Notes: generated from the letters alone by a model not told the origin. DNA of 64,000 bases from an uncultured Rhodobacteraceae bacterium (GCA_947494445.1 CANLVD010000005.1:184947-248946); one strand, 5' to 3'. Shown: positions 46,996 to 64,000, numbered from the stretch's first letter. Program-made: numbers and translations.

Positions 46996-47027
46996 CATTT
47001 GACCTTCAAGAGCTTTGCATCTGACCC

Positions 47028-47618
47028 ATGGCGATACTGTCTCCAACCGGATTGAGCGGAACCATTGTCTGGATGGGCAGGGTCGAGGATCGTGACGCAG
47101 CCCTTGCATCCTCGGAGATGGGTCAGGCAGAGGTCGGCTATGACGGGCTTCCCGGTGAAAGCCACGGCGGTCTGACCCGCAAGTCCTGCGCACGTGTCTT
47201 GCAACAATATCCGCGCGGCACGGAGATCCGCAATGTGCGCCAGATCACGATCCTGTCCGAAGAGGACATGGCCGCGACTGCACGGGACATGGGGCTCGAC
47301 CGGCTGGAGCCTGAATGGGTCGGCGCCAGTCTGATCATCAAAGGCATTCCCGACTTCACGATGATCCCACCCTCGTCGCGGTTGATATCGCAATCGGGTC
47401 TTGGACTTGTGGTGGATATGGAAAATGCCCCTTGCACACTAAGTGCGCGCTCGATCGAGCAATTCGCTCCGGGGTATGGAAAACTATACAAGCAGGCGGC
47501 CCAGAACCGCCGCGGTGTGACCGCCTGGGTCGAGCGCCCAGGACCGTTGCATATCGGAGATGTCCTTCAGCTTCATGCGCCGCCAAACCGGATTTACCGG
47601 CATATTCCGACCTCCTGA
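47028..47618 (+). CDS. MOSC domain-containing protein
   Basis: 196 aa with a beta-barrel MOSC-like pattern (GLPGESHGG...). Assignment made by eye. Confidence 0.65.
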   Translation: MAILSPTGLSGTIVWMGRVEDRDAALASSEMGQAEVGYDGLPGESHGGLTRKSCARVLQQYPRGTEIRNVRQITILSEEDMAATARDMGLDRLEPEWVGASLIIKGIPDFTMIPPSSRLISQSGLGLVVDMENAPCTLSARSIEQFAPGYGKLYKQAAQNRRGVTAWVERPGPLHIGDVLQLHAPPNRIYRHIPTS

Positions 47619-50604: not shown

Positions 50605-53154
50605 ATGCAAACCCAGGCTCGGGTCGTTGTAATCGGCGGTGGAGTGGTCGGATGTTCGGTCCTGTACCACCTTGCCAAGGCAGGCTGGACCGATGTTCTG
50701 CTGATCGAGCGTTCAGAGCTGACTTCTGGATCGTCATGGCATGCGGCAGGCGGGTTTCACACGCTTAACGGCGATCCCAACGTGGCAAAGCTGCAAGCCT
50801 ATACAGTGGGTCTGTACAAGGAGCTGGAAGAGCTTTCGGGCCAATCCTGCGGCTTGCATCTGACCGGTGGTTTCATGATGGCGGATACGCCTGAGCGGAT
50901 GGATTTCCTGCGTGCCGCCCATGCCAAGGGGCGATACCTTGGCATGTCTACGGAACTTGTCTCCCCTGAGGAGGCCAAGGCAATGTTCCCGCTTCTGGAC
51001 ACGTCTCATTTTGTTGGCGGTCTTTGGGATCCGGTTGAGGGCCATCTCGATCCATCAGGCACCACGCATGCCTATGCCAAGGCCGCGCGCAAACTTGGCG
51101 CATCCATCGAGCTGCGCAATCCAGTGGTGGAGATCACGCAGGATGCTGACGGCACCTGGAATGTGGTGTGCGAGAATGGAACCGTGCGCTGCGAGCACGT
51201 GGTCAACGCCGGCGGGCTTTGGGCGCGTGAGGTGGGTCGGATGGTCGGGCTGGAGCTGCCGCTTCTGGCCATGGAGCATATGTATCTTTTGACCGAAGAC
51301 ATCCCCGAGATCGTCGAATTCAACGAGACCCACGGCCGGGAAGTCTGCCACATCATTGATTTCAAGGGTGAGATCTACACGCGTCAGGAACGTAACGGCC
51401 TGCTGGTCGGCACCTATGAGAAAGCCTGTAAACCATGGTCACCGGTGACCACACCATGGGAATTCGGCCATGAATTGCTGGAGCCGGATCTGGATCGCAT
51501 CAGCCCCAGTCTTGAGATCGGCTTCAGGCACTTTCCGGCCTTGGAACATGCTGGCATCAAGCAGGTCATCAATGGACCATTCACCTTTGCACCCGATGGC
51601 AACCCGCTGGTTGGTCCTGTACCGGGCCTGACGAATTTCTGGTCGGCCTGTGCGGTCATGGCAGGGTTCTCTCAAGGGGGAGGAGTGGGGCTGGCGCTGT
51701 CGAACTGGATGGTTCACGGCGATCCCGGGTTTGATGTTTTCGGTATGGATGTTGCACGCTTCGGAGAATGGGCCAGCCTGCGCTACACGAATGCGAAGGT
51801 TCGCGAGAACTATTCCAACCGCTTCTCCATCCAGTTCCCCAATGAGGAACGGCCTGCGGGGCGGCCTGCTCAGACAACGGCGCTCTACGATGTGATGACG
51901 CGCGACAACAATGCGGCCATGGGCTTTTCCTGGGGTCTTGAGACGCCGCTTTGGTTCGCGCCTGAAGGGGAGGCGCCTGTAGATGTGCTGTCTTTCCACC
52001 GCTCAAACGACTTTGAGCATGTAGGTGCAGAGGTCCGGGCTGTGCGCGAGGCTGTTGGCGTCACCGAAATCTCGAATTTTGCGAAATACGAGGTCACGGG
52101 CGAAGGTGCTGAAGACTGGTTGAACCATCTGATGACGAACCGGATGCCAAAGACCGGACGGATCGTTCTCAGTCCGATGCTCAACGAAGCGGGCAAGCTC
52201 ATCGGAGATTTCACGATCGCCAAACCTGCTGAAGACCGTTTTGTGATCTGGGGCTCTTCTGGCGCGCAGATGTATCATATGCGCTGGTTCGATGTGCATC
52301 TGCCCAAAGATGGTTCGGTGCGGATCCATCGTTTTGACCAGACATTGTCGGGTCTTTCTCTTGCGGGGCCAAAGTCACGGGATGTTCTTGCCGCTCTGGT
52401 GGAGTGTGATGTCTCGAACGCAGCTTTCCGCTTCATGGACCACCGGGAAATGGCTGTGGCAGGCGCGCCTTGTCGGGTCAACCGGATCACCTATACCGGT
52501 GATCTGGGATATGAGATCTGGATGCAACCGGCGCATTTGCGTCAGGTCTATGACGGCATCAAGCAGGCAGGTGCGGCACATGGCATCCGGGACTTCGGGA
52601 TGCGGGCTCTGCTGTCGATGCGCTTAGAAAAGAACTTCCCGACTTGGGGGCACGAGTTGCGCCCGATCTATGGTCCAATGGAAGGGGCGATGGAGCGTTT
52701 CGTGAAACTGTACAACACCGACTTCATCGGGCGGGATGCGGCCCTGAAGGAGGCTCAGGATGGCCCGAACCTTCGACGTAGCGCATTTGTCATAGATGCC
52801 GAAACCGCAGACGTGATGCGTGACGAACCGATTTGGGCGCGGGTTGGCGATCAGGATTTTGGCATTTCTGCGCCCGTGCATGACAGTGGTGTCAGACGTT
52901 ACCGGGATGATGGCAGCACAGTCGAGATGGTGAGCAATCTGACAGACGGAGAGTGGCGGGTCGTCGGCTGGGTGACCTCTGGCGGCTATGCGCATTATGT
53001 CGGTCTTTCCATGGCTCAGGGCTATGTTCCAGCGTCCCTGTCTGAGAAAACCGAAGATGGTTTCTTTGAGATCGAGATCCTTGGAAAGCGCTTGCCAGCG
53101 CGTCTTGTCCTTGATCCACCGTTCGATCCCGAAGGTCACATCATGCGTTCTTGA
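50605..53154 (+). CDS. FAD-dependent oxidoreductase fused to a GcvT-type aminomethyltransferase domain (dimethylglycine/sarcosine dehydrogenase family)
   Basis: Start at MQTQARVVVIGGGVVGCS (FAD GxGxxG). Has a large C-terminal folate-binding GcvT-like region. Confidence 0.85.
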   Translation: MQTQARVVVIGGGVVGCSVLYHLAKAGWTDVLLIERSELTSGSSWHAAGGFHTLNGDPNVAKLQAYTVGLYKELEELSGQSCGLHLTGGFMMADTPERMDFLRAAHAKGRYLGMSTELVSPEEAKAMFPLLDTSHFVGGLWDPVEGHLDPSGTTHAYAKAARKLGASIELRNPVVEITQDADGTWNVVCENGTVRCEHVVNAGGLWAREVGRMVGLELPLLAMEHMYLLTEDIPEIVEFNETHGREVCHIIDFKGEIYTRQERNGLLVGTYEKACKPWSPVTTPWEFGHELLEPDLDRISPSLEIGFRHFPALEHAGIKQVINGPFTFAPDGNPLVGPVPGLTNFWSACAVMAGFSQGGGVGLALSNWMVHGDPGFDVFGMDVARFGEWASLRYTNAKVRENYSNRFSIQFPNEERPAGRPAQTTALYDVMTRDNNAAMGFSWGLETPLWFAPEGEAPVDVLSFHRSNDFEHVGAEVRAVREAVGVTEISNFAKYEVTGEGAEDWLNHLMTNRMPKTGRIVLSPMLNEAGKLIGDFTIAKPAEDRFVIWGSSGAQMYHMRWFDVHLPKDGSVRIHRFDQTLSGLSLAGPKSRDVLAALVECDVSNAAFRFMDHREMAVAGAPCRVNRITYTGDLGYEIWMQPAHLRQVYDGIKQAGAAHGIRDFGMRALLSMRLEKNFPTWGHELRPIYGPMEGAMERFVKLYNTDFIGRDAALKEAQDGPNLRRSAFVIDAETADVMRDEPIWARVGDQDFGISAPVHDSGVRRYRDDGSTVEMVSNLTDGEWRVVGWVTSGGYAHYVGLSMAQGYVPASLSEKTEDGFFEIEILGKRLPARLVLDPPFDPEGHIMRS

Positions 53155-53226
53155 CCTTAGGGCAGCTGCAAGAGGCGATTCTCTACCCGCCACGATCCGA
53201 ACACAGTTAACGGAGAACATTTGGCG

Positions 53227-53264
53227 TTAAGCACTGGTTAACCAGCAAGATTGCCCTATATAAT
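53227..53264 (+). promoter_or_regulatory. candidate CtrA-dependent promoter: TTAA-N7-TTAAC box over the -35 position plus a TATAAT -10
   Basis: The box TTAAGCACTGGTTAAC (53227-53242) is a perfect match to the alphaproteobacterial CtrA consensus. TATAAT lies at 53259-53264, 16 nt downstream of the box. Confidence 0.5.
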
Positions 53265-53422
53265 GGGTTCGATCAGCTGAAAAACGCCAAAAGATGACAA
53301 AAACACATGTTTGATATGCATATGATGCATGGCAGTCATGACGAGAATGCACTACTGAATGGTCAAAAAATTGTCATATTGCGCGTCACACCGATTAACC
53401 GGATGAAATGAGGTAGAACGTA

Positions 53423-53737
53423 ATGTTCGATTACGTTGATGAAAATGCTTTCTCCTACGATCAGGGGAAACGCTCACAGAAATTGTTCGCCGCCGTTGTG
53501 CTGGCAGCATTGGATGACGCCATCGCTGATGACAAGAAATACGGCAATGGTCCGGATGTCATTGCCAGATGGGCACGCTCTCGCGATGGGCGCGAGGTCC
53601 TGATGTGCGCTGGCATTGATCCGAACGAGCGGACTGTCAAAGGTATGATGGATTTTGTTGGCCGTGGTGTCAGAACTTCTGTCGCACTTAGCCGCGAAGA
53701 AAGCGAACGTCAGGCTTTGGCGCGCGACGCCGCCTGA
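53423..53737 (+). CDS. small orphan cytoplasmic protein (possible regulator)
   Basis: 104 aa with a GAGG Shine-Dalgarno 7 nt upstream. No signal peptide or TM helix, and no family recognised. Confidence 0.55.
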   Translation: MFDYVDENAFSYDQGKRSQKLFAAVVLAALDDAIADDKKYGNGPDVIARWARSRDGREVLMCAGIDPNERTVKGMMDFVGRGVRTSVALSREESERQALARDAA

Positions 53738-53752
53738 TTTCCAAGAAACCAA

Positions 53753-53774
53753 ATGCCCGCCACTGGCAGGGCAT
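53753..53774. terminator. hairpin between convergent genes (weak terminator candidate)
   Basis: ATGCCCGCCACTGGCAGGGCAT is an imperfect stem-loop. An A-run precedes it, giving a U-run on the minus strand. Confidence 0.35.
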
Positions 53775-53799
53775 CTGTCGATGATCCTAGGCGATTGCG

Positions 53800-54429
53800 T
53801 TAACCGCAGTCGCCCAGTCCTTTTCTAGCGAAGATTTCCACACGTCGATTGCGCGGGTCAGATCCGGCAACGCCCGGTAATGGGCTGGTTTCACCGGCAC
53901 CCACCAGCCAGAACCCGAAACCTTCCGTGCCGATCCGATCTTCAAGGAAGCGCCTGACCAGCTCGGCGCGCCGCAAAGAGACCCGGGCATTTGCATCCTC
54001 TGCGCCGATGGTGTCGGCATGGCCCACAAGTTTGATGCAGGTTCCCTGAAATTCTGGCAGCCGCAATGCATTTGCCAGCTTATTCAGAATCTGCTCAACC
54101 TCGGCGGAAAGCGAACTCGAACTGGCCATGGCCACCGAAAAACTGCCCGTATCAACACTTGCCGCAGGCAGGTTTGTCTGAATGATCTCAGGCTGCGGGG
54201 CAGGGGTCGGAGCGATCGTCTGGGCTGGCGCAAGATCGGCATCTCCACCTTTGGACAAGGCAGTGTGGCAGGTTGCGCGGTCCATGCCGTAAAGTGAAAA
54301 CAGGACTTTGCAATGGGCGTCCACGACCTCTGGTGCAAGCGGGCGTTCGTTTGCAAGAGCGGAACTCATTGAACAGCAGCAAGCAGCGATTAGCGCTAGT
54401 GCAAGACGCGGCAGGTTTGGTAGTCGCAT
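53800..54429 (-). CDS. OmpA-like peptidoglycan-binding (lipo)protein
   Basis: Signal peptide with possible lipobox LIAAC. C-terminal OmpA_C-like motifs (VGHADTIG...NARVSLRRAE...NRRVEI). Confidence 0.8.
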   Translation of the reverse strand: MRLPNLPRLALALIAACCCSMSSALANERPLAPEVVDAHCKVLFSLYGMDRATCHTALSKGGDADLAPAQTIAPTPAPQPEIIQTNLPAASVDTGSFSVAMASSSSLSAEVEQILNKLANALRLPEFQGTCIKLVGHADTIGAEDANARVSLRRAELVRRFLEDRIGTEGFGFWLVGAGETSPLPGVAGSDPRNRRVEIFARKGLGDCG

Positions 54430-54595
54430 GACGGTGTCCTCCTGCGCGGTTTAATAAAAACAAGTCAATAACGCTTCGTAAACGGCGAGGCCCCGTCTTA
54501 AGCCAAGGGCCTGGGAATAATTTTCGGATGCTTCACGGTTAATTTACCGCCCTCAGTCATTTGACGTCACAAATGCCGGGAAGGAGGGAATATCC

Positions 54596-55738
54596 GTGCC
54601 AAAACAATCTGATCGCATGATCTGGCTGGATTGCCTTCGTTTGCTGGCGGGCGTGTCCATGGTCGGGCTTCATGCCTCTTCAGACGCAAACGGACTGCCA
54701 TTTCCTGATTTCCCAGCAGAAGAGCGCGTCTTCCCGGTGCTGTTTCGGTCCGTGATCTACATCGCGCGAACTGAGCTTTTTATCATCATTTCACTTTTCC
54801 TTTTGTGCATGGCCGTGGATGCACGACCTCGCAGCTATGCTGAAATGGTGCGCCAGCAGTTTCGCAGATTGATGGTTCCTTTTGCTTTTTGGGTTGTTGT
54901 TTTTGCGTTCTACAACCTCATCAAGGCACAGCAGTTCGGGTATGTTGATGCAATCCGCACGGACCTTGGAAGTCCTGTCGTCTGGTTAGGGTACTTCGTT
55001 CTGGGCGATGTGAAATACCATATGCATTTCCTTCCCACACTCTTTCCGCTGGTTTTCATGCTGCCACTTTACCGTCTGGCCGTCCGCCATCCGGAACTTG
55101 CATTGGTCATTCTGCTGTGTCTGGCAGCCAAACGTGAGATCGACATGTTCCTGTGGGCCAATCTCAAGGAGGTTGCCGGCTTTGACTACATCGTCCGCTT
55201 CATCAAGGTCCTGACGTATATGGGATATGGAATGGTGGCGGGAGCGTTCTATGGCATCTACACCCGGGGATTTTCCCGGACAGAGGGAACAGCATTGATC
55301 GGTTTAGCGCTGACGGTGGGTTTGATGCTCTATGCGCTCAAGCTCGCCTATTCCTGGCGGGTGATAAACACCGGCAATTGGCAATGGAATTTCACACCCG
55401 CCTTCTGGGCGGACTTTCTGATGCCGGTTGTTGTCTTTCTTGGTGTCATGGCTGCCTGCCACCGAGCATGGCCGTTGATCCTGAGCAAGCTCGCACCATT
55501 CAGTTTTGGCCTTTACCTTGCGCATCCACTGTTTCTTGATCTGGCGGAAATCGGATCGCGAAACTGGGACCTTTCACCCAGTCAATTGGTCATTGTGAAG
55601 GTCACGTTCGCAGTTCTGACCACATCCCTGTTTCTCGCAGGTCTGGCACGTTTCAAACCTCTTGCCTGGACCATAGGCATGGGGCCATTGCCAGGGATCT
55701 TGCGCCTCAAGCTCACGTCTTCGAAAGCCACTCAATGA
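54596..55738 (+). CDS. acyltransferase-3 family integral membrane O-acyltransferase (OpgC/OafA-like)
   Basis: GTG start behind AAGGAGGG. About 10 TM helices and the N-terminal WLDCLRLLAGVSMVGLH motif typical of Acyl_transf_3. Confidence 0.8.
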   Translation: MPKQSDRMIWLDCLRLLAGVSMVGLHASSDANGLPFPDFPAEERVFPVLFRSVIYIARTELFIIISLFLLCMAVDARPRSYAEMVRQQFRRLMVPFAFWVVVFAFYNLIKAQQFGYVDAIRTDLGSPVVWLGYFVLGDVKYHMHFLPTLFPLVFMLPLYRLAVRHPELALVILLCLAAKREIDMFLWANLKEVAGFDYIVRFIKVLTYMGYGMVAGAFYGIYTRGFSRTEGTALIGLALTVGLMLYALKLAYSWRVINTGNWQWNFTPAFWADFLMPVVVFLGVMAACHRAWPLILSKLAPFSFGLYLAHPLFLDLAEIGSRNWDLSPSQLVIVKVTFAVLTTSLFLAGLARFKPLAWTIGMGPLPGILRLKLTSSKATQ

Positions 55739-55772
55739 TACAAAAAATACACAAGAATGAAGCAGGTTTTCC

Positions 55773-57263
55773 ATGAGGTTGATGACTCAAACATACCGGC
55801 AAATCTGTCTGGTTTCACTTGACGACGAGCGGTTCGATCGCAAACGCGTGCCGTCCTTCATCAGTCAGATCAACGGCTTGATCAAAACAGGACAGCGACA
55901 TTTCGTGTTTGACTTCAGCAAGGTACGCCATGTCGATTTCTCGGCGCTGACGGCTGTGGTGACGGTATTCCAATCGCTGGGATCGGCAGGCTCTGCCGGA
56001 CTTTGCGGCCTTGATATCCGCGCCAGTGCCCGGTTGAAACAAGCTGGTCTTGAAAGTGTTTTCGTTCAATGGCCGGATGCGCGGGCCGCACTGAACTATT
56101 ATGGCTTGTCTCCCATCAATTGCTTGCGGACATCTGGCATGCAGGCGGTCGTATTGTCTGGGAAGAGATCCCAGTCAATCTGTTCCATGGCGCCTGGTCA
56201 AACCTCAGCAATGTTTCCTTTGCTGCACCGGCCCGTTCTTGACCATGTCCTGAACTATCTGTCGGTCCACGGACAGCGCAAGGTGGTTGCGAGTGTTGAC
56301 TACGGTATGCCGGAGATCGAAGGCTATTTCGGGCAAGGCGATGCATATGGAATAGACCTTAAGCTCTCGTCTGAAGCCATTATGACAGCAGCGGGCTCGG
56401 TCCCGGCACCCCTTGGCAGTACCGCCAGTCTGAGGCAGTCGCTTCTGTTGCATGGGCCCGGTGATATGCCGGTGCTGGCAATTACCATGGGCTGCCTGCC
56501 CCAAGTTGACCTGACGGCCATGCAGCGTGCGCATAATCGAACCGGAGCGGATATTACCTTGAGCGGCAGCGCAACGATCGGCAGGACTGCACCCTCCGAT
56601 AATCCGGTCTGGTTTGTGGATCACGATGGTGAGGTCAAGGGGCAGGGCAGTTTGCTTCAGGTGCCCCCTGATCTTGCCGGATTTGCAGATACGGGCGTCA
56701 TGATTCTGTCATCACGTGCACTGGATCTTCTCCCCGATGTTGAGGACTTCGATCTGGTTGCAGAATTCGTGCCTGTCGCGATCAAGTCCGGCCTGAAAGT
56801 GGCTCTGGTACGCGATGATGCCCAGAGGATGCTTCTATCGACCTTGTCGGACATCTATTCATCAACCTGCCACCTACTTGATCGCAATGCCTGTTCAAAC
56901 GCACAGGCCCAAGAAGCCTCGTATCTCTTCGCTGACCATGCCGCCACATGCCATATTTCACCCGATGCCCGTATTTCTGGACAGGTATCCTTTGGCACCG
57001 ATGTCGTTGTTCAGGCAGGAGTTGAAATTTCGGGCCCGACCGTTATTGGCGCGGGTAGCTTCATTGCCAAGAACAGCCGGATCAATCGATCACTTCTGAT
57101 GCCCGGCACCAATTTGGCTGAAGGCGCGCGCATCAATGACCTGATCGTCAACAACCAGCAGGCCATGCGTTTGCATCCGCAAAAAGCTGTTGTCGATCTG
57201 CCTGAGCCTGTCCTGCTCCGCCCTGATCAGGTGCCAGAGACACTCTCGAAACAGGCTTCATGA
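55773..57263 (+). CDS. fusion protein: N-terminal STAS (anti-sigma-antagonist-like) domain + sugar-nucleotidyltransferase-like domain + left-handed beta-helix hexapeptide repeats
   Basis: STAS-like block FVFDFSKVRHVDFSALTAVV...ARLKQAGLESVF (aa 8-108). NTP_transferase-like block AVVLSGKRSQS...FPLLHRPVLDHVLNYL...GYFGQGDAYGIDL. Hexapeptide repeats ISGQVSFGTDVVVQAGVEISGPTVIGAGSFIAKNSRI. Confidence 0.7.
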   Translation: MRLMTQTYRQICLVSLDDERFDRKRVPSFISQINGLIKTGQRHFVFDFSKVRHVDFSALTAVVTVFQSLGSAGSAGLCGLDIRASARLKQAGLESVFVQWPDARAALNYYGLSPINCLRTSGMQAVVLSGKRSQSICSMAPGQTSAMFPLLHRPVLDHVLNYLSVHGQRKVVASVDYGMPEIEGYFGQGDAYGIDLKLSSEAIMTAAGSVPAPLGSTASLRQSLLLHGPGDMPVLAITMGCLPQVDLTAMQRAHNRTGADITLSGSATIGRTAPSDNPVWFVDHDGEVKGQGSLLQVPPDLAGFADTGVMILSSRALDLLPDVEDFDLVAEFVPVAIKSGLKVALVRDDAQRMLLSTLSDIYSSTCHLLDRNACSNAQAQEASYLFADHAATCHISPDARISGQVSFGTDVVVQAGVEISGPTVIGAGSFIAKNSRINRSLLMPGTNLAEGARINDLIVNNQQAMRLHPQKAVVDLPEPVLLRPDQVPETLSKQAS

Positions 57264-57356
57264 GAGGCGTGGGATTCCTAAGATTTTAGGCATTTTCAGT
57301 TTTAATGCCCAAGCGATTTAACACTCTTTGACCGATTTGCTCCGATAAGTCCGAGC

Positions 57357-59363
57357 ATGAACATGATAAACGGATCCTTACCGGTATCAGATGCGCAGGA
57401 TGCGCAGAACACAGCACCGGACCCTCGGGTGGTAACCATCAGGGACCGTGTTCTGCCAAACTGGGCCAAGATCCTGATCGCAATCTTTGCGATAAGTTCC
57501 GGCCTGCTGGGGCTGTCTGTCTCTTTCCTGCCGCTGTTTTTTCTCGACTCTGCTATTTTGTCGGGATCCGCCGACTTGATCATGACGATTTTAGGGGTTG
57601 GGGCTGTCCTACTGTCGGGAAGCATGCTCCTGGATTTCATTCGCACCCAGATCCTTGCCGGTCTGGAAAGTGAGCAGAATCGCTACATCACTATTGTGGA
57701 GGCCTGTCTTGGATTGGCTGTCGCAGCGTTTCTGGCTCTGGTTCACCCTTTGCTTGTGTTTGGTGTTCTGTTCAGTGCGGTGCTGACGACGTTGGCGACA
57801 TTCATGTTCATGCGCTTCTTTCCTGTGGATCTCTCGGACAGTTTCGACAAGTCAGAGGCGGCTGCGATGCTGTCGGGCCGCGACCCGTTTGGGCTTTCAC
57901 TCAGTGTCCTTGGCAAGAGCAGGGTTCCGGTTCTGTTTGGCTCGGTGATGCAGCTTATCTCGGGCTTCGGATTTCTGATCGTCTTTGGCACGGGTGCATG
58001 GCTGGTCTCAGAGCATATGATTTCCGAGGGTGGCCTGGTGGCGGCGGCGTTTTTGAGTCTTCGCGCATCGCGTGCCTTTGCCGATTTTGCTCGGCTGGAA
58101 TTCGACAGTGAGGTGTCGCTGTTTGACTGGCTGATGGAACGTCGAAGTCAGGAACGGGCCATGCCTGCAAGCACATCGGATGATGACGTGATAACCGACG
58201 AAATGGCTGAGTCCGATGGACTGCTGGTGTCCAACCTGATGGTGCATTCTGTCGAAGATACCTCGCGTCTGGTCGGGCCGTTGGATTTCAAGGTCGCGAG
58301 AGGGCGTGTGCTGGGTCTGACTGGCGAACGGTCAGGCGGTAAATCTACAGTTCTGAAAGCCCTGATTGCCGGCAAGCGGGCCAATGGCTTTCATGTGTCG
58401 GGCACTGTTCTCATGGATGGCGCATTTCTGTGGCGCTGGAGTTCGCGAAACACCGGTCTGCAGGCCATGGCAGTCCCTGAATCGCCGGCAAACCTTCCGG
58501 GAAGTGGCATCGACAACGTCACGACCTTTGATGAGGAAATCGACGTGCGCGAGGCAAAGGCGGCATTGCAACGCATCGATGTGATGTCCGCTCATACAGA
58601 CCGTATTCTCACCACCAGTGATGCCAGAAGCCTGTCAGCACAGGAGACCAAAATTCTGGCGCTCGCCAGGACTTTTCTGCTTCGGCCAAAACTGTATCTG
58701 CTCGACATGCCGGAAAAGGATCTTTACCCGCGGGGACTGTTCGCTCTCGCCGATCTGATCCGCAAGGAAAAGGAGTTTGGCGCATCCTTTGTAATTGTCT
58801 CCAAAAACCGATCTATCCTGGACCTTTGTGATGAGGTGATTGTTCTTGAGTCCGGCAATATCAACGACCGTGGAACGGCTGAGGAAGTCCTCGCGCGCCA
58901 GGACTCCGGTTGTCATCGGATCGTCGTTGAGCAAAACCCGGATTCAGAAGATCGCCTGTCGGCTTGGGTCAGATCGCTCTACACCCGCAAAGGTGACGAG
59001 GAAAACAGAAAGACAGCTGCAGATCTTGTCAGCGATCTGATTGCCTACTCCTGTGCCGGATCGGGCGCGGCTCCGGGCCAGACCATCTTTGATCTTCGCC
59101 ATCAGGTCGGCTCGACCACGATCACGATGTATGATCATGGCCCCATGCTGTCGACCGTGCAGATTGCGGCAGTGCGGGAGTTGAAGGAAGCCCCTCCGAT
59201 CAACTCTCCCAAACGACCGTTGTGGAACATCGTCAACTCAAGTCTGGAGTTTCATCAGGAGGTCAGCGGCGATGCCGAGGAAACACGCGTCACCAAGGTA
59301 TCGTTCGAAATCTATGACCCACGGCTGAAAGGGGATCCATCATTGAAAGAGGCAGGCAAATGA
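57357..59363 (+). CDS. ABC exporter-like protein (TMD-NBD) with degenerate catalytic motifs and an extra C-terminal RsbW/SpoIIAB-like domain
   Basis: About 6 TM helices (aa 35-245). Walker A GERSGGKST is intact. The signature is LSAQE (canonical LSGGQ), Walker B is LYLLDMPE (no catalytic Glu), and the H-loop position is Lys. About 140 extra residues follow the NBD. Confidence 0.75.
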   Translation: MNMINGSLPVSDAQDAQNTAPDPRVVTIRDRVLPNWAKILIAIFAISSGLLGLSVSFLPLFFLDSAILSGSADLIMTILGVGAVLLSGSMLLDFIRTQILAGLESEQNRYITIVEACLGLAVAAFLALVHPLLVFGVLFSAVLTTLATFMFMRFFPVDLSDSFDKSEAAAMLSGRDPFGLSLSVLGKSRVPVLFGSVMQLISGFGFLIVFGTGAWLVSEHMISEGGLVAAAFLSLRASRAFADFARLEFDSEVSLFDWLMERRSQERAMPASTSDDDVITDEMAESDGLLVSNLMVHSVEDTSRLVGPLDFKVARGRVLGLTGERSGGKSTVLKALIAGKRANGFHVSGTVLMDGAFLWRWSSRNTGLQAMAVPESPANLPGSGIDNVTTFDEEIDVREAKAALQRIDVMSAHTDRILTTSDARSLSAQETKILALARTFLLRPKLYLLDMPEKDLYPRGLFALADLIRKEKEFGASFVIVSKNRSILDLCDEVIVLESGNINDRGTAEEVLARQDSGCHRIVVEQNPDSEDRLSAWVRSLYTRKGDEENRKTAADLVSDLIAYSCAGSGAAPGQTIFDLRHQVGSTTITMYDHGPMLSTVQIAAVRELKEAPPINSPKRPLWNIVNSSLEFHQEVSGDAEETRVTKVSFEIYDPRLKGDPSLKEAGK

Positions 59364-60556
59364 CACAGCCAGATCAGGCTCTGCCAAGGCGTAAAAAGCC
59401 ATCTGTGCTTCGCAAACTGGTTCGGGGCACCGTCGTTCTTTTGTTTACCGGGACGGTCTTCTTTGTCATCGGATGGAGTTGGGGCACTGAGGAAGAGCAC
59501 CTGACCTATCGGGGATGGATGAGTTCCCAAACTGTGGTGGAAACCATCACGATCCCCCGCAGCCACAGTCTTGTGCGGTTGGAAGTGACCGAAGGGCAGC
59601 GCATTCGCGAAGGCCAGCGCATCGCTGTGATCCAGCATAGACCGGACACGAAGCAAGACGTGAATGTAGCGGCCGAGATAGCAGAAATAGACGGGATACT
59701 TGCCTGTTTGACAGGTCAGAGAAGCGCAGGAATACCCGGAACCGACGTGCGTTCTCATGAAATTTGCGAGGCTTTGGCTCCACCAAACCAGATTGATGAC
59801 CCATCATCTGAACTTCAGGTGTTACGCTGGAGGCGTCTCGTCCTGGCATCAAGATTGCTTGACGAATACCAGGCGCAAATCGGACAATCTCCATCGGAAC
59901 TGGCGGCAGGATTATCGCTTTATCAGGATTCCCTGAAAGCAAGGTCGACCTCACTGGAAGGTGGCCTGAGAGCCAAGAGAGCTGGGGCAAATATTAACCC
60001 GGACTTGTTGCGTCAACAGCGTGAAAACCTTGCTGCGGTCCTGAACAAGGTCCGATCCCAATTGGTCAGCCGATCCCAGCAAGCACAGACACCACCCACC
60101 ATGATTGATCTGGTGGCACCACGCTCGGGCCGTATTGTACATCTGCGTGAAGGCGTATCCGGTGTCGAGGCCCGCCAGCCGATCACCCTTGCGCAGATCC
60201 TTCCGGAGACGGTGAGTCCGCCAACCGTGGTATTCGAGATCCCGATTGCCCAGTCGCAGACAATCTCTGTCGGGTCCGAAGTACTTGTGACCACGATCGG
60301 CTTGCCTTCGAAAAGTCAGGAGTTTGTAGGCTTGGTTACAAACCATCGTCTGACGTATTCCCCCGGAACAGACGCTCGGCGCATTGCTCTGACAGTCTTG
60401 TTGGATGACACCGTTGCCGCCGCAATTGAGCAGGATCCGGCATCAGCATTGATTCTGGATCCAGGGTCAATGACGCCTGTTGAGATCAAACCACGACATC
60501 GACCGCTTGGTCTGGTTGGCCTGAAAGCACGCATCCGAACTTTGGTGAGGCTCTGA
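59360..60556 (+). CDS. HlyD-family periplasmic adaptor (membrane fusion protein)-like
   Basis: ATGA overlap with the ABC gene. N-terminal TM helix, lipoyl-like hairpin halves (VRLEVTEGQRIREGQRIAVI ... APRSGRIVHLREG) and a coiled-coil middle. Confidence 0.75.
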   Translation: MTQPDQALPRRKKPSVLRKLVRGTVVLLFTGTVFFVIGWSWGTEEEHLTYRGWMSSQTVVETITIPRSHSLVRLEVTEGQRIREGQRIAVIQHRPDTKQDVNVAAEIAEIDGILACLTGQRSAGIPGTDVRSHEICEALAPPNQIDDPSSELQVLRWRRLVLASRLLDEYQAQIGQSPSELAAGLSLYQDSLKARSTSLEGGLRAKRAGANINPDLLRQQRENLAAVLNKVRSQLVSRSQQAQTPPTMIDLVAPRSGRIVHLREGVSGVEARQPITLAQILPETVSPPTVVFEIPIAQSQTISVGSEVLVTTIGLPSKSQEFVGLVTNHRLTYSPGTDARRIALTVLLDDTVAAAIEQDPASALILDPGSMTPVEIKPRHRPLGLVGLKARIRTLVRL

Positions 60557-60651
60557 CATGGCGATTACATCGGGAAAAATCGTCTCAACGTTATGCATTC
60601 ATTTACGGCATTTTGTTTTGAATGCCGCAAACCGGAAGAGTTAGAGACAGC

Positions 60652-62352
60652 ATGGAACCGTCCAGAAACAACAAGTCCAAGAAAAATCGTGGAGCGCCAT
60701 TCCTGGCGACGGCGCTGTTTCTCGTTGTGGGGACAGCCGTTCTTGCCGGGGCAGTCAGTCTGGGCGACTACGCCAAACATATTTTCCGAAACAAGGAATT
60801 CGAAACCAACCCGATCATCGCCGGTTCCGAGGATGACGATCTGCCCATGCTCATGCGCGGCAACCTGCCAACGGTTACCAACAGTCTGTCTTTTGGTACG
60901 AAAAAGCGCGAGCGTGTTCCACGCATGTGCGAGATGCCCAAAAATTACTATGAAAAGAACCCGTGGCCTGAAGACCTGGTGGTCGGGTATCAAAGAGACA
61001 ACAGTTATGTACGCCCGTACCGTCCCAATCGTGGATTTCTGACCGAGCGGGAAATGGCTGCGGCACGGGTCGCTTGGCACTACTTCGAGTCCTTCACTCA
61101 GGAAAATACCGGATTGGCAAATTCGGTGGGTAACTACCCCTCAACAACCCTGTGGGATACGGCATCCTATATCAGCGGTCTGGTTGCTGCGTATGAACTT
61201 TGCATCATAGAAAAGCCCGAGTTCGACAAACGCGCCTATGCGTTGCTGACAACATTCAAGACCCTCAAGCTTTTCCGTCGCGAGATGCCCAACAAGGTGT
61301 ATCAGACCAAGACAGGCGAGCAGGTGGACTACACCAACAAGCCTGGCGAAGTCGGGTATTCTGCACTGGACATCGGACGCTTTATGGTCTGGATGCGCAT
61401 ACTCAAAAATAGATACCCTTATCTTGGAAACACGATCGATAGTGTTTTGCTCCGGTGGGACTACTCGCGCATTTTTGATGCTGACGGTCTCATGTATGGC
61501 GCGCGCATCGACAAGGAAACTAACGAGACCCTTTACGATCAGGAAGGCCGCCTTGGCTACGAGGAGTATGCTGCAAAGGGATTTGCGCTCTGGGGTTTTC
61601 AACCCAGGCTGGCGCATAGGGCTGAGCCGTTCCTGATGGCCAGTATCTTCGGAATTCAGGTGCCCTATGATGGACGGGACCCCCGTGTATTTCACTCGCA
61701 GAATTATGTGGTTACAGAGTCTTATCTGCTTGATGGATTGGAGTTGAACTTTGATCTTCCGCATGATGATACCAGCCCCGACTGGGTTCATTCCGACGGT
61801 TGGAGAGCAGAATTTGCCGACCGGATCTACCAGGTTCAGGAAAACCGGTACCTAAGAACGGGATTCATGACGGCTCGGTCAGAGCACAACGTCAAAGGCC
61901 CTCCGTATTTCACCTATGATACGATTTTCTCGGATGGGTATCCTTGGAACACTGTCACGCCAAGGGGCGATTACGCCCCTGACCATGCAGCCATTGCTTC
62001 AAAAGCGGCATTGGGGATCTGGTCGCTATGGAAGACAGACTACAGCGGTCTTTTGTTCGATGCGATCATCGACCTCTACAACCCGGAAAGCGGTATGTAC
62101 GAAGGCCTTTATGAAGGCGGTCAGGGACGGGTCGAGATCTATACCGCCAACAACAATGGCATCATTCTTGGTTCACTTTTGCACAAGGTTCAGGGAAAAA
62201 TCCTGACCCCTTACAATGGCCCGACCGAAGTCTGGTATACCGCATTCCGTGATCGCGACATCCGGCTGGTCAGAAACCTTCCTGATCCACCGCAACGCGA
62301 AGACTGGCTTCCAGCTTTGCGTCACTCAACCCAACTGGAGCTAGACTACTGA
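60652..62352 (+). CDS. membrane-anchored periplasmic protein, six-hairpin glycosidase-like (DUF3131-like)
   Basis: N-terminal TM helix (FLATALFLVVGTAVLAGAV), then a domain of about 480 aa with motifs such as TTLWDTASYISGLVAAYEL and SALDIGRFMVWM. Family assignment is from memory. ATG 60622 is an alternative start. Confidence 0.6.
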   Translation: MEPSRNNKSKKNRGAPFLATALFLVVGTAVLAGAVSLGDYAKHIFRNKEFETNPIIAGSEDDDLPMLMRGNLPTVTNSLSFGTKKRERVPRMCEMPKNYYEKNPWPEDLVVGYQRDNSYVRPYRPNRGFLTEREMAAARVAWHYFESFTQENTGLANSVGNYPSTTLWDTASYISGLVAAYELCIIEKPEFDKRAYALLTTFKTLKLFRREMPNKVYQTKTGEQVDYTNKPGEVGYSALDIGRFMVWMRILKNRYPYLGNTIDSVLLRWDYSRIFDADGLMYGARIDKETNETLYDQEGRLGYEEYAAKGFALWGFQPRLAHRAEPFLMASIFGIQVPYDGRDPRVFHSQNYVVTESYLLDGLELNFDLPHDDTSPDWVHSDGWRAEFADRIYQVQENRYLRTGFMTARSEHNVKGPPYFTYDTIFSDGYPWNTVTPRGDYAPDHAAIASKAALGIWSLWKTDYSGLLFDAIIDLYNPESGMYEGLYEGGQGRVEIYTANNNGIILGSLLHKVQGKILTPYNGPTEVWYTAFRDRDIRLVRNLPDPPQREDWLPALRHSTQLELDY

Positions 62353-63926
62353 TGAACAGCAAAAAACTCAGAATGTTGTTGATTGCATCCATCATTGTTG
62401 CAGCAACTCCAACTCATCAGGCTGCTGCACAATCAAATGCAGGACCAGAGAGATTTGACTCCGAAAATGCGGTACTGGACACGTCCAAGCCATTTGCCAT
62501 AGGCGCTACTGAGGCTGAGCAGGCCATTCGCGGAGCTTTTGGATGGCCGGTTTTTCAAGAAGGCATCGTTGCTGGCGCATATTTCCGGTTTGATCCGGAC
62601 GGATACGCACGTTTTGGCCCTTCGCCGCGGCTCGACAGGGATGTCTGGGAGGTAACCTGTGTTGCCCGCACTGTGATCTGTGCAGCCAACAAGATGGGTG
62701 TCGAGGTGGCGCTGACGGATCAGGGCATGATGCAAATGGCCATCTCGGGATTAACTGTGCAGGACACTTTTTTTCTGTCAGACGGGACGTCTGAATTGCC
62801 CTTGCCACCAAGGGTGTTGGAGCCGCTTGATGATCGGCTTGAGGCGCTCCTGATTTCTGGTGGCAACCTTGTTGTTCGTCGTGAAAACGAAACCATTCAT
62901 GACATCAGCCTCAATGGTCTGGGCGCCGTTGTCCCGTATTTGCGGTGGGTTGCCAACAAGCAGGATTACTCTGTTTTGCCTGTTAACTGGCCGATCCCGA
63001 ATTCTGGAAACCAGATTAGTAAAGGGTTGACACAGGTTGCGGACTGGAACGGAAATGGTGCGCCTCCACAGAATTTGCAAACGTCCTGGGCAATGCGAAA
63101 CCAGCAGAATACCGCTCCGAGCGGAGGCTTTGACCAGCAACATCAAAGAGGGAACCAGCCGGTCAATGTTACAATCGTGCCAGGCTTGATGGGCGCAACC
63201 CAGTCCATGCAACAGGCAGGTCTCGGTTCGACAGGATCTGCCGGTGGCAACGAGCTGAATTCTGAGATCTCCCGTCTTGAAGGGCAAATTGCCCAACTTC
63301 AGCAGGCATTCAACAAGGATGCTGAGGTAGCCGGAACGAACTCAGTTGGTCAGCTTCAGTCCAGTTCAAATCAAATGACCCCAACACCGCAAGCAACTCC
63401 ATCAGATGCTATGGGCAGTGATAGCCTCCGACCTTATCTGGAGGAAATTCTGGTTCGTTTGGCTTGGATTCAAAGTGTTTTGCAACCGATTGCTCATGAT
63501 CATGCGCAGGTGTCTGCGGCGCAAAGTGCAGCTCCACACCATTCCACAAGTTCCAGTGGTGTGCTGCAAATGGCCTCTCCAGGACAGCTGGAAACCATGC
63601 CAAGCATAGCCTTGAACCAGATTGCCGGGTTGACGGCTGCTCCAAGTCCTCTGGAACACTCACAAAACAACGCACTGGTTCCCGCCATGCCGTCACTCCA
63701 GCAATCACCCGTTCAGGCTAGCGCTGGGATCTCTCCCGAACTTGAGATGGAAAAGGCTTTGATTGAACGTATTCTGCTTGAACTGGATGAAGGTCAGTCA
63801 GGAAACGCACCCCAAGCGGCAGAGCTTGCACCTGTGGTCACTCCGCAAATTGCCGGCCAAGCTCCTCAGGGAGAGTTCAAGGCAATCACAGATTTCCTGA
63901 ACGAAGCCATGTCGTCAGGCGGCTAG
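62352..63926 (+). CDS. secreted protein with a globular N-terminal half and a Q/S/P-rich low-complexity C-terminal half
   Basis: TGATG overlap with the upstream gene. Signal peptide MNSKKLRMLLIASIIVAATPTHQAAA and a short coiled-coil segment (EISRLEGQIAQLQQAF). Confidence 0.6.
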   Translation: MNSKKLRMLLIASIIVAATPTHQAAAQSNAGPERFDSENAVLDTSKPFAIGATEAEQAIRGAFGWPVFQEGIVAGAYFRFDPDGYARFGPSPRLDRDVWEVTCVARTVICAANKMGVEVALTDQGMMQMAISGLTVQDTFFLSDGTSELPLPPRVLEPLDDRLEALLISGGNLVVRRENETIHDISLNGLGAVVPYLRWVANKQDYSVLPVNWPIPNSGNQISKGLTQVADWNGNGAPPQNLQTSWAMRNQQNTAPSGGFDQQHQRGNQPVNVTIVPGLMGATQSMQQAGLGSTGSAGGNELNSEISRLEGQIAQLQQAFNKDAEVAGTNSVGQLQSSSNQMTPTPQATPSDAMGSDSLRPYLEEILVRLAWIQSVLQPIAHDHAQVSAAQSAAPHHSTSSSGVLQMASPGQLETMPSIALNQIAGLTAAPSPLEHSQNNALVPAMPSLQQSPVQASAGISPELEMEKALIERILLELDEGQSGNAPQAAELAPVVTPQIAGQAPQGEFKAITDFLNEAMSSGG

Positions 63927-63969
63927 CATGACACTGAATTGCTTCGCTCTTGATGCCCAGAGGTAGGCT

Positions 63970-64000
63970 ATGCCAGACGCTTCGATGAGCAAGGCATCCG
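63970..64000 (+). CDS. 5' end of the next operon gene (truncated by the window)
   Basis: ATG at 63970 about 7 nt after AGAGG (MPDASMSKAS...). Only 10 codons are visible. Confidence 0.25.
   Translation, partial: MPDASMSKAS

Follow-up and report, generated by a model that had tools for sequence, protein, structure and literature searches.

A degenerate SpoIIAB/RsbW-like domain on an ABC-like protein of Roseobacter-group bacteria and a neighbouring STAS domain as its putative partner

Introduction

Partner-switching modules, which pair a STAS domain with an RsbW-like kinase, are best known as sigma-factor switches, and their direct action on polysaccharide enzymes has been shown only recently. 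Here we analyse a stretch of 64,000 nucleotides from an uncultured Rhodobacteraceae bacterium (CANLVD010000005.1:184947-248946), referred to as the window. One of its genes (57357..59363) encodes an ATP-binding cassette (ABC)-like protein whose C-terminal extension, the tail, very probably has the fold of the anti-sigma kinases SpoIIAB and RsbW, most probably without their kinase activity, and the gene immediately upstream (55773..57263) encodes a nucleotidyltransferase-like protein that bears a STAS domain at its N-terminus (STAS-NT). The explanation that we favour as a whole, with a probability of about 0.5, is that a dead GHKL tail and a phosphorylation-free docking of this STAS domain operate at a membrane glucan complex. 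In the literature, no description was found of an anti-sigma-kinase-like (HATPase_c_2) domain on an ABC protein.

The closest described systems each share a part of this arrangement. SpoIIAB-SpoIIAA and RsbW-RsbV of Bacillus provide the best structural matches to the tail (1TID, 1TH8, 1L0O, 6M36), with the same fold and order of secondary structures, and, as in these systems, an antagonist-type STAS protein is encoded nearby. SpoIIAB and RsbW are free proteins of 140-160 aa, whereas the window domain is joined C-terminally to a membrane ABC-like protein and lacks the N-box Asn, the His and the G2 box; unlike SpoIIAA and RsbV, the window STAS domain is fused to an enzyme and is devoid of the phosphorylated Ser. 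In contrast to the Bacillus systems, no sigma factor and no SpoIIE/PP2C phosphatase, nor any active kinase, was found in the three related clusters annotated with Pfam. Both chains of the UsfX-RsfB pair of M. tuberculosis (8IH8, 8JZT) also ranked near the top, UsfX in the search with the tail and RsfB in that with the STAS profile (1.5e-7). UsfX reportedly acts without phosphorylating its antagonists and would therefore form a phosphorylation-independent pair like the one proposed here; unlike the tail, it is a soluble anti-sigma-F factor that controls transcription and is not fused to a transporter. By analogy, the window pair is likely to work most like SpoIIAB-SpoIIAA or UsfX-RsfB with regard to fold and likely partner.

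In other systems the likeness concerns the ABC protein or the pathway. In MalK, MetN, ModC and Wzt an extra domain is present directly past the ABC ATPase domain, as in the window protein, where it may control closure of the dimer or bind a ligand; these domains have TOBE/OB, ACT-like or jelly-roll folds, and we know of none with a Bergerat fold. In BceAB-BceS an ABC transporter forms a complex with a GHKL-domain protein (8G3A chain D, rank 19 in the Foldseek search described below), but BceS is an active histidine kinase, separate from the transporter, that contains a DHp domain, whereas the GHKL module of the window is fused, predicted to be inactive and without DHp. In E. coli, the STAS protein MlaB regulates or stabilises the ABC ATPase MlaF, whose C-terminal extension is functional (PMC7367683). 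MlaB stands alone and binds the ATPase domain itself, and the MlaF extension is a short tail and not a GHKL domain, unlike that of the window protein. A precedent for STAS-enzyme fusions controlled by RsbW-like proteins in polysaccharide synthesis is Anabaena All4160, a STAS domain with a glycosyltransferase, which is served by the kinases Alr3423 and All2284 and the phosphatase HenR (bioRxiv 10.64898/2026.04.08.717354). In Vibrio fischeri, SypA and SypE provide a partner-switching-like control of polysaccharide enzymes (PMC10120452, PMC4517449). As in Anabaena and V. fischeri, the putative window pair would combine a STAS domain on a polysaccharide enzyme with an RsbW-like handler and would not act via a sigma factor. 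The Anabaena and Syp systems rely on active kinases, on a phosphatase of the SpoIIE/PP2C type and on a Ser that can be phosphorylated, whereas the window pair lacks phosphorylation residues on both sides and has its kinase-like module built into an ABC-like membrane protein. The window locus differs from the known systems in that the putative receptor is fused to an ABC-like protein, both partners lack phosphorylation residues and the enzymatic modules tend to be pseudoenzymes.

A C-terminal domain family with the predicted fold of anti-sigma kinases

The gene and the domain under study are as follows.

57357..59363, + strand: ABC-like protein of 668 aa (open reading frame, ORF), whose hydrophobic N-terminal domain is followed by a nucleotide-binding domain that is degenerate and, at the C-terminus, by a GHKL-like domain
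58911..59324, + strand: predicted SpoIIAB/RsbW-like GHKL (Bergerat-fold) pseudokinase domain, aa 519-656 (phmmer family, AlphaFold2 (AF2), Foldseek, weak Pfam matches)
58965..59012, + strand: family signature W537-x6-R544-x-G-D-E-x-N550-R-K, which runs from the end of helix alpha1 through the alpha1-alpha2 loop into the start of alpha2
59313..59324, + strand: Y-D-P-R motif, aa 653-656, which closes the domain past beta5

A preliminary description of this DNA had noted, by pattern, a likeness to a catalytically dead anti-sigma (GHKL) domain at 58911-59321; this interval does correspond to aa 519-655 of the 668-aa ORF, and the three peptides that it had compared with RsbW lie at aa 520-541, 554-568 and 575-596. 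To define the family, 1.84 billion representative proteins were searched exhaustively with phmmer. The tail matched 61 proteins, with E down to 1e-38, nearly all of them about 650 aa long and matching at their C-terminus. A word-index search retrieved nothing with the tail alone, itself and distant ABC proteins with the full protein, and five short fragments with alignment A1, which comprises 56 family sequences. Family signatures in A1 are SGW.RF, W..S.FRR.GDE.NRR, ELLALSC, FEFKHF.G.C and TYDPR. W537, R544 and N550 (W29, R36 and N42 of the fragment) and D654-P655-R656 (D146, P147 and R148) are invariant in 56/56 members, and G38, D39 and R44 of the fragment are conserved in at least 90%.

Four homologues seemed to stand alone. 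P0092 lacks beta1 and alpha1 and is a truncated remnant, while P0049, P0090 and P0091 start within the ABC domain; the locus of P0090 is fragmented, and P0049 and P0091 come from contigs about 1 kb long. No true free-standing form of the domain was present among the homologues found. The locus of P0092 (L002, 10001..10528 of ENA ERZ27250978) carries a 175-aa gene that contains alpha2 onward only, without the transmembrane and ABC parts, in an otherwise intact cluster; this gene is probably a deletion remnant. The tail represents a previously unannotated, Pfam-less domain family that always occurs at the C-terminal end of a single kind of ABC-like protein.

When the window tail was modelled by AF2 as a single sequence, the predicted local distance difference test score (pLDDT) was 34.6 and the model was unusable. 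With A1 as input and no templates, all five models reached a pLDDT of at least 89.7 (best model 91.2, with a predicted template-modelling (TM) score of 0.85). The predicted topology, beta1-alpha1-alpha2-beta2-beta3-two short helices-beta4-beta5, is the Bergerat order of the HATPase_c_2/SpoIIAB-RsbW kinases. In a Foldseek search of the PDB, ranks 1-18 were occupied exclusively by anti-sigma Ser kinases, namely SpoIIAB (1TID, 1TH8, 1L0O, 1TIL, 1THN), M. tuberculosis UsfX (8IH8, 8JZT) and RsbW (6M36, 6M37), with E of 4e-7 to 4e-4, a probability of 1.00 and TM scores of 0.41-0.60 normalised to the query and 0.58-0.81 normalised to the target. Below rank 18 came histidine-kinase CA domains and pyruvate dehydrogenase kinases, at E of 5e-4 or worse. 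In these models the structural likeness of the tail to anti-sigma kinases is far above chance; the anti-sigma (GHKL)-like character previously proposed for the extension is borne out by the model and by the top 18 matches, and we hold the fold of the tail and its remote homology to SpoIIAB/RsbW-type GHKL domains to be very probable.

Comparisons of sequence gave a much fainter signal. With the last 160 residues of the window protein, Pfam returned nothing relevant, and HATPase_c_2 (PF13581) did not match even at E <=10; by its sequence the window tail is not a formal member of that family. A sequence search of the PDB gave only a weak, unrelated chaperonin (E 0.007) and a profile search of the PDB was likewise non-significant. 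BLASTP against B. subtilis RsbW, whose sequence was verified against PDB 6M36, produced only spurious matches of 11-15 residues (E 4.6), and a hidden Markov model (HMM) of three SpoIIAB/RsbW sequences did not match the tail family significantly. When each of the 56 members was scanned with Pfam (E <=10), HATPase_c_2 was the commonest family (6/56, best E 3.1e-4) and HATPase_c matched one more. A reference profile was built from 16 true anti-sigma kinases, taken from PDB-verified sequences and plasmid records; additional ones were sought among viral contigs and none was found. Alignment of A1 with this profile by hhalign gave a probability of 18% (E 0.0013) over 39 columns only, covering beta2-beta3-G1-lid, and probabilities across hhalign runs were 4-18%. 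In this register, QTIFDL..TMYDHGP stands opposite the beta2-beta3-G1 segment of SpoIIAB/RsbW. In a forced global alignment of the profiles, which is non-significant and collinear with the predicted secondary structure, VSD560LIAY564 stands opposite VSE46AVTN50. The registers in which the three peptides had been set beside RsbW are right according to both alignments, but sequence similarity alone, whether judged by BLASTP, Pfam or hhalign, does not rise above chance.

Loss of the catalytic residues in the tail

Seven residues are invariant in the 16 reference kinases (E46, N50, H54, D81, G83, G107 and G109 in SpoIIAB numbering). Two remnants of the corresponding boxes can be located in the window.

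59016..59060, + strand: N-box helix remnant AADLVSDLIAYSCAG, aa 554-568, with Asp560 at the Glu position and Tyr564 at the position of the Mg-binding Asn (forced hhalign alignment, 16 kinases)
59127..59144, + strand: G1 box remnant MYDHGP, aa 591-596, in which Asp593 corresponds to SpoIIAB Asp81 (local hhalign alignment)

Position by position, the kinases, the window and the 56 family members compare as follows.

E46 (N-box Glu): Asp560 in the window; Glu in 43 and Asp in 10 members
N50 (N-box Asn): Tyr564 in the window; Leu in 28, Phe in 16, Tyr in 6, Val in 3, Met in 1 and His in 1 member, Asn in 0/56
H54 (N-box His): Gly568 in the window; variable in the family
D81 (G1 Asp): Asp593 in the window; retained in 51/56
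G2 box G-x-G (hinge of the ATP lid): R-P-L-W in the window; S-P-L-A in the family, with no Gly in the 56 members

The replacement of the N-box Glu and Asn by D and Y, as first described, was reproduced by the forced profile alignment, and the absence of Asn extends to the whole family. No alternative register of helix alpha2 gives a conserved Asn, the invariant N550 being located at the very start of the helix. In the G1 box (D-x-G-x-G), the first Gly is found in 25/56 members, including the window (Gly595), and the second is absent. On these motifs a kinase activity of the tail is very unlikely, and we consider it highly probable that the domain is a pseudokinase; the tail may retain some binding of adenine nucleotides.

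The ABC domain is degenerate across the family

58224..58901, + strand: degenerate nucleotide-binding domain, aa ~290-515 (alignment of the family with ordinary exporter ABC proteins)

By eye, the N-terminal domain shows about six hydrophobic stretches. An ENA metagenome contig encodes a protein (P0001) with 100% identity to the ABC-like protein, and the one named family member in NCBI is called only "ATP-binding cassette domain-containing protein". Pfam recognised ABC_tran (PF00005) alone in the 668 aa (aa 308-452, E 1.8e-12), with no match to ABC_membrane; the NCBIfam models of type I secretion proteins PrtD/LssB matched weakly over aa ~200-515 (best TIGR01842, 91 bits vs a cut-off of 510), which places the protein outside the full-length PrtD/HlyB-type families of NCBIfam. 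The ABC motifs were compared in 45 family members and four ordinary exporter ABC proteins, two of which are named type I secretion permease/ATPases. The window domain retains Walker A (GERSGGKS) and the Walker B Asp (LYLLD). The catalytic Glu is replaced by Met (LYLLDMPE), the Q-loop Gln by Glu and the H-loop His by Lys, and the signature reads LSAQE. These changes run through the family (consensus strings lyllDrPEd, T.nR and Ls....), in which Arg takes the place of the catalytic Glu, the Q-loop is variable, only "Ls...." is left of LSGGQ, and E/D/N stand for the H-loop His. A Glu located 3 residues past the Walker B Asp (DrPE) is conserved.

Judged by these motifs, the domain plausibly binds ATP, while hydrolysis is doubtful. 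Related clusters showed no second ABC gene of the same family, so that a homodimer would carry two degenerate sites. Because its ATPase domain is degenerate, the protein is more likely to be a nucleotide-binding scaffold or gate than an ATP-driven pump. Degeneration of the ATPase motifs throughout a family would be rare among ABC proteins.

The neighbouring gene carries an antagonist-type STAS domain

[quoted passage not shown]
55773..56102, + strand: STAS domain, aa 1-110 (alignment A4, profile vs PDB)

Pfam identified STAS (PF01740) at aa 4-97 of this protein (E 7e-7, 29.4 bits vs a cut-off of 22.6). A profile of 11 family STAS domains (A4) was compared with the PDB and matched 4QTP (1.5e-9), RsfB (8IH8_A, 1.5e-7), TM1442 (1.8e-6), SpoIIAA (5.7e-4) and MlaB (about 3e-3). 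The profile is thus nearest to the anti-sigma antagonists, by orders of magnitude over MlaB, and its matches include RsfB and SpoIIAA, whose partner kinases take the top ranks of the fold search with the tail. In SpoIIAA and TM1442 the phosphorylated Ser, which we take to be S58 and S59, respectively, follows a conserved Asp. In the alignment with TM1442, this position is occupied by Phe56 in the window (55938..55940) and by F/Q/R/M/E/A/D in the 11 aligned members, never by Ser. A STAS domain without a phospho-acceptor Ser fits a kinase-dead partner.

When the 64 kb of the window were scanned with a purpose-built HMM, the STAS domain of 55773..57263 was the sole match, and no bona fide anti-sigma kinase was found there. 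A weak hit of the HMM at 47025..47615 proved to be a MOSC-domain ORF and not a STAS domain. It had been stated previously that the only STAS domain nearby belongs to the gene immediately upstream, and this holds for the whole window, the Pfam match being above the gathering score.

The remainder of the window STAS-NT looks like an enzyme in decay. A Hexapep/LbH match is found at aa 392-463 (Pfam), and the middle region resembles weakly the NCBIfam model for mannose-1-phosphate guanylyltransferase (71 bits vs a cut-off of 440). The nucleotidyltransferase signature (L)xAGxGxRxxPL...PKPM (GxGxR..PKPM) is intact in ten relatives, and has been lost in the window and in loci L004, L015, L024 and L027, where the STAS domain and the beta-helix remain. 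At aa 123-160 (56139..56250) the window reads SGKRSQS..SAMFPLL vs AGAGTRM..PKPML in Shimia; Pfam NTP_transferase (PF00483) does not match the window STAS-NT, whereas the Shimia orthologue matches at 4.6e-35. STAS-NT of the window lineage looks like a pseudoenzyme. The fact that a decayed enzyme has been kept with its STAS domain, adjoining the ABC gene, suggests that STAS-NT would have a binding or regulatory role in the lineages concerned.

The two fusions occur in a conserved cluster

The genes next to STAS-NT and the ABC-like protein in the window are listed below.

54596..55738, + strand: Acyl_transf_3 membrane acyltransferase (Pfam E 1.5e-28), 45-52% identical to the acyltransferase beside STAS-NT in related loci
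59360..60556, + strand: HlyD-like membrane-fusion protein, 398 aa (Pfam HlyD_3, E 1.2e-5, and HlyD_D23)
60622..62352, + strand: DUF3131 protein, 576 aa (Pfam E 1.8e-113), 69-76% identical to the gene beside the ABC gene in Roseobacter-group loci
62352..63926, + strand: protein of 524 aa without significant Pfam match, whose first ~240 aa are conserved (45-55% identity over the N-terminal half in related loci) and whose tail is of low complexity

The stop codon of the ABC gene and the start of the membrane-fusion protein overlap by 4 nt (59360..59363), which suggests translational coupling, the two proteins being made together. An ORF of similar size lies 3' of the ABC gene in the related loci inspected, with a weak BLAST match to the membrane-fusion protein of the window in only two of them.

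Related loci were collected by scanning reference genomes, one per GTDB species, with a pattern derived from a 10-sequence subset of the family (A2). The scan yielded 24 genuine loci, all from Rhodobacterales (Roseobacter group), in the genera Harenicola, Amylibacter, Actibacterium, Pseudaestuariivita, Shimia, Cognatishimia, Litoreibacter, Roseivivax and HTCC2150 and in related metagenome-assembled genomes; when the window protein itself was used on the reference genomes, no relatives were retrieved. Five additional loci came from metagenome scans and contig look-ups. Two loci of Vicinamibacterales (L029, 9584..10459, and L030) were discarded, as they encode an unrelated 291-aa membrane protein with a chance HFRRDGDEGARR (HFRRDGDE pattern) that an HMM places outside the family.

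A STAS-NT HMM located STAS-NT in the same cluster as the ABC gene in 17 loci, from Rhodobacterales genomes and unassigned metagenome contigs, so that the two fusions do co-occur across genomes. STAS-NT was found in every locus in which DNA upstream of the family 2 glycosyltransferase (GT2) gene fell inside the fetched flank. The conserved cluster comprises the acyltransferase, STAS-NT, GT2, two DUF3131 genes, the ABC protein and the membrane-fusion protein. In Shimia, the ABC-GHKL gene (665 aa) is followed by an ORF of about 400 aa; nearby are Acyl_transf_3, STAS-NTP_transferase-LbH (498 aa), a 252-aa gene, GT2 (605 aa) and the short DUF3131 gene, and the cluster also includes the long DUF3131 gene and the gene for a protein of about 520 aa, a pair that as a rule diverges from the ABC gene, and an OmpA-family gene. 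STAS-NT is located directly upstream of the ABC gene both in the window and in L004, the closest relative of the window (50% identity in the tail). No GT2 gene is present in the 64-kb window, and the cluster may therefore run past position 64000.

Putative docking of the STAS domain on the tail and alternative explanations

The fold of the tail and the class of the neighbouring STAS domain together suggest how the two proteins might be connected. The tail would keep the ancestral job of such kinases, the binding of a STAS domain, and its partner would be the N-terminal STAS domain of the nucleotidyltransferase-like protein from the same cluster; because the kinase motifs are gone and the phospho-Ser is absent from the STAS domain, binding would be independent of phosphorylation. 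We put forward this docking tentatively, as a putative interaction that may well fail. Circumstantial points in its favour are the presence of both genes in one cluster in 17 loci, the antagonist-type STAS profile, the missing phospho-acceptor Ser, and the lack of phosphatase and sigma-factor genes in the three related clusters annotated with Pfam. Once bound, the sugar-nucleotide enzyme would be tethered or regulated at a membrane complex formed by the ABC-like protein together with the membrane-fusion protein and probably the GT2 synthase, and this complex would make or export an acylated glucan. The product of the cluster is probably an acylated beta-glucan, because GT2, Acyl_transf_3 and DUF3131 are found in it; Acyl_transf_3 is the family of the osmoregulated periplasmic glucan (OPG) succinyltransferase OpgC. 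There may also be a link to the GH189 cyclization domain.

If the docking is true, it would offer a simple example of a transport or synthesis machine that recruits or senses its precursor-making enzyme. A bolder version, which we find doubtful, is that the locus encodes a membrane-embedded, phosphorylation-free partner-switching device built mostly of pseudoenzymes (a hydrolysis-dead ABC half-transporter, a pseudokinase and a STAS-tagged enzyme, itself decayed in some lineages) that gates or assembles glucan synthesis and export by GT2 and the membrane-fusion protein in marine Roseobacter-group bacteria. Such a device would be a new coupling of precursor supply to polysaccharide export. The cultured carriers (Shimia, Actibacterium, Harenicola, Pseudaestuariivita and Cognatishimia) make genetics feasible.

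Several observations weigh against a docking of STAS-NT on the tail. Firstly, the profile-profile similarity is weak (18%), so that the homology of the tail rests mainly on predicted structure. Secondly, 5-8 kb separate the two genes in most relatives, where they belong to different transcription units, and in three loci of 20 kb (L014, L017 and L018) neither GT2 nor STAS-NT was found within 10 kb of the ABC gene. Thirdly, co-occurrence spans the whole cluster and does not single out the STAS-GHKL pair; in a mirror-tree comparison this pair gave the highest correlation, by a small margin (r 0.51 vs 0.34-0.45 for the other inter-protein domain pairs). Fourthly, the invariant residues W537, R544, N550 and D654-P-R may merely pack onto the ABC domain. 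Finally, a STAS domain can attach directly to an ABC ATPase domain, as MlaB does to MlaF (PMC7367683).

The alternative that survives best, although we judge it unlikely, is that the tail associates with itself and regulates the ABC dimer, in a manner comparable to the C-terminal regulatory domains of MalK and MetN; it would hold or release the ATPase-like domains, perhaps in response to a small ligand (a nucleotide, a nucleotide-sugar or cyclic di-GMP (c-di-GMP)), and would bind no STAS domain. The absence of any linker between the ABC domain and the tail is in keeping with this, residues 2-9 of the model forming a helix that continues straight to beta1, as are the homodimeric state of SpoIIAB and RsbW and the three loci without STAS-NT within 10 kb. 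Also in its favour are the G1 Asp, the adenine contact of GHKL proteins, which is kept in 51/56 members, the invariant Arg-rich motif FRR.GDE.NRR, and a CckA CA domain with c-di-GMP among the weaker Foldseek matches (rank 34). No ligand-binding motif was recognised in the tail, however, and self-association leaves unexplained why an enzyme of the same cluster carries an antagonist-type STAS domain and retains it where the enzyme motif decays. Self-association and STAS docking are not mutually exclusive.

It is improbable that the STAS domain instead binds the ABC ATPase-like domain in the manner of MlaB and MlaF, leaving to the tail a separate role, either structural or in binding the membrane-fusion protein or the synthase. 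This arrangement has a model in MlaB, a STAS protein that binds and stabilises an ABC ATPase with a functional C-terminal extension (PMC7367683), and MlaB chains were indeed recovered by the STAS profile at E of about 3e-3; the profile performs far better on anti-sigma antagonists (1.5e-9 vs 3e-3), and the same ABC-like protein bears a domain with the predicted fold of the natural receptor of STAS domains.

The nearest structures in the Foldseek search are all anti-sigma factors, as expected if the tail were a true membrane-tethered anti-sigma factor that releases its sigma factor upon binding of the STAS protein, in classical partner switching. We give this very little credence, since the related clusters annotated with Pfam contain no sigma-factor gene and the cluster genes of the window no sigma-factor domain, while a phosphatase to reset the switch and a phospho-acceptor Ser are both missing. 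To our knowledge, moreover, the SigF/SigB-group sigma factors that SpoIIAB/RsbW-type proteins bind are not typical of Alphaproteobacteria.

That the likeness is an artefact, through a wrong predicted fold or a generic alpha/beta sandwich that matches GHKL by chance, might be read from the single-sequence model and from the lack of significant Pfam, PDB-sequence or hhalign matches, but it is scarcely credible given five template-free models of high pLDDT, 18 consecutive matches to one functional class with collinear secondary structure, weak Pfam matches that fall independently on HATPase_c_2 and local sequence alignments that share one register.

Flanking genes and composition of the window

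A few further features of the cluster and its surroundings were recorded. In the window (60622..63926) and in L005-L028, the long DUF3131 gene is always paired with a gene for a protein of about 450-580 aa that has a conserved N-terminal part of 240 aa and a low-complexity tail rich in Pro/Gln/Ala/Ser, and a second, shorter DUF3131 gene is located beside GT2 in most clusters. A sequence search of the PDB found no solved relative for either DUF3131 protein, and in the literature DUF3131 was found only in gene lists. The cluster is flanked by genes for a DUF6280 protein (53423..53737, Pfam E 1e-44) and an OmpA-family protein (53800..54429, - strand); an OmpA-family gene adjoins the acyltransferase gene in several related loci. 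The G+C content is 0.53-0.55 over 52001..64000 vs 0.57-0.62 in the preceding 52 kb, and from this drop the cluster may have been horizontally acquired.

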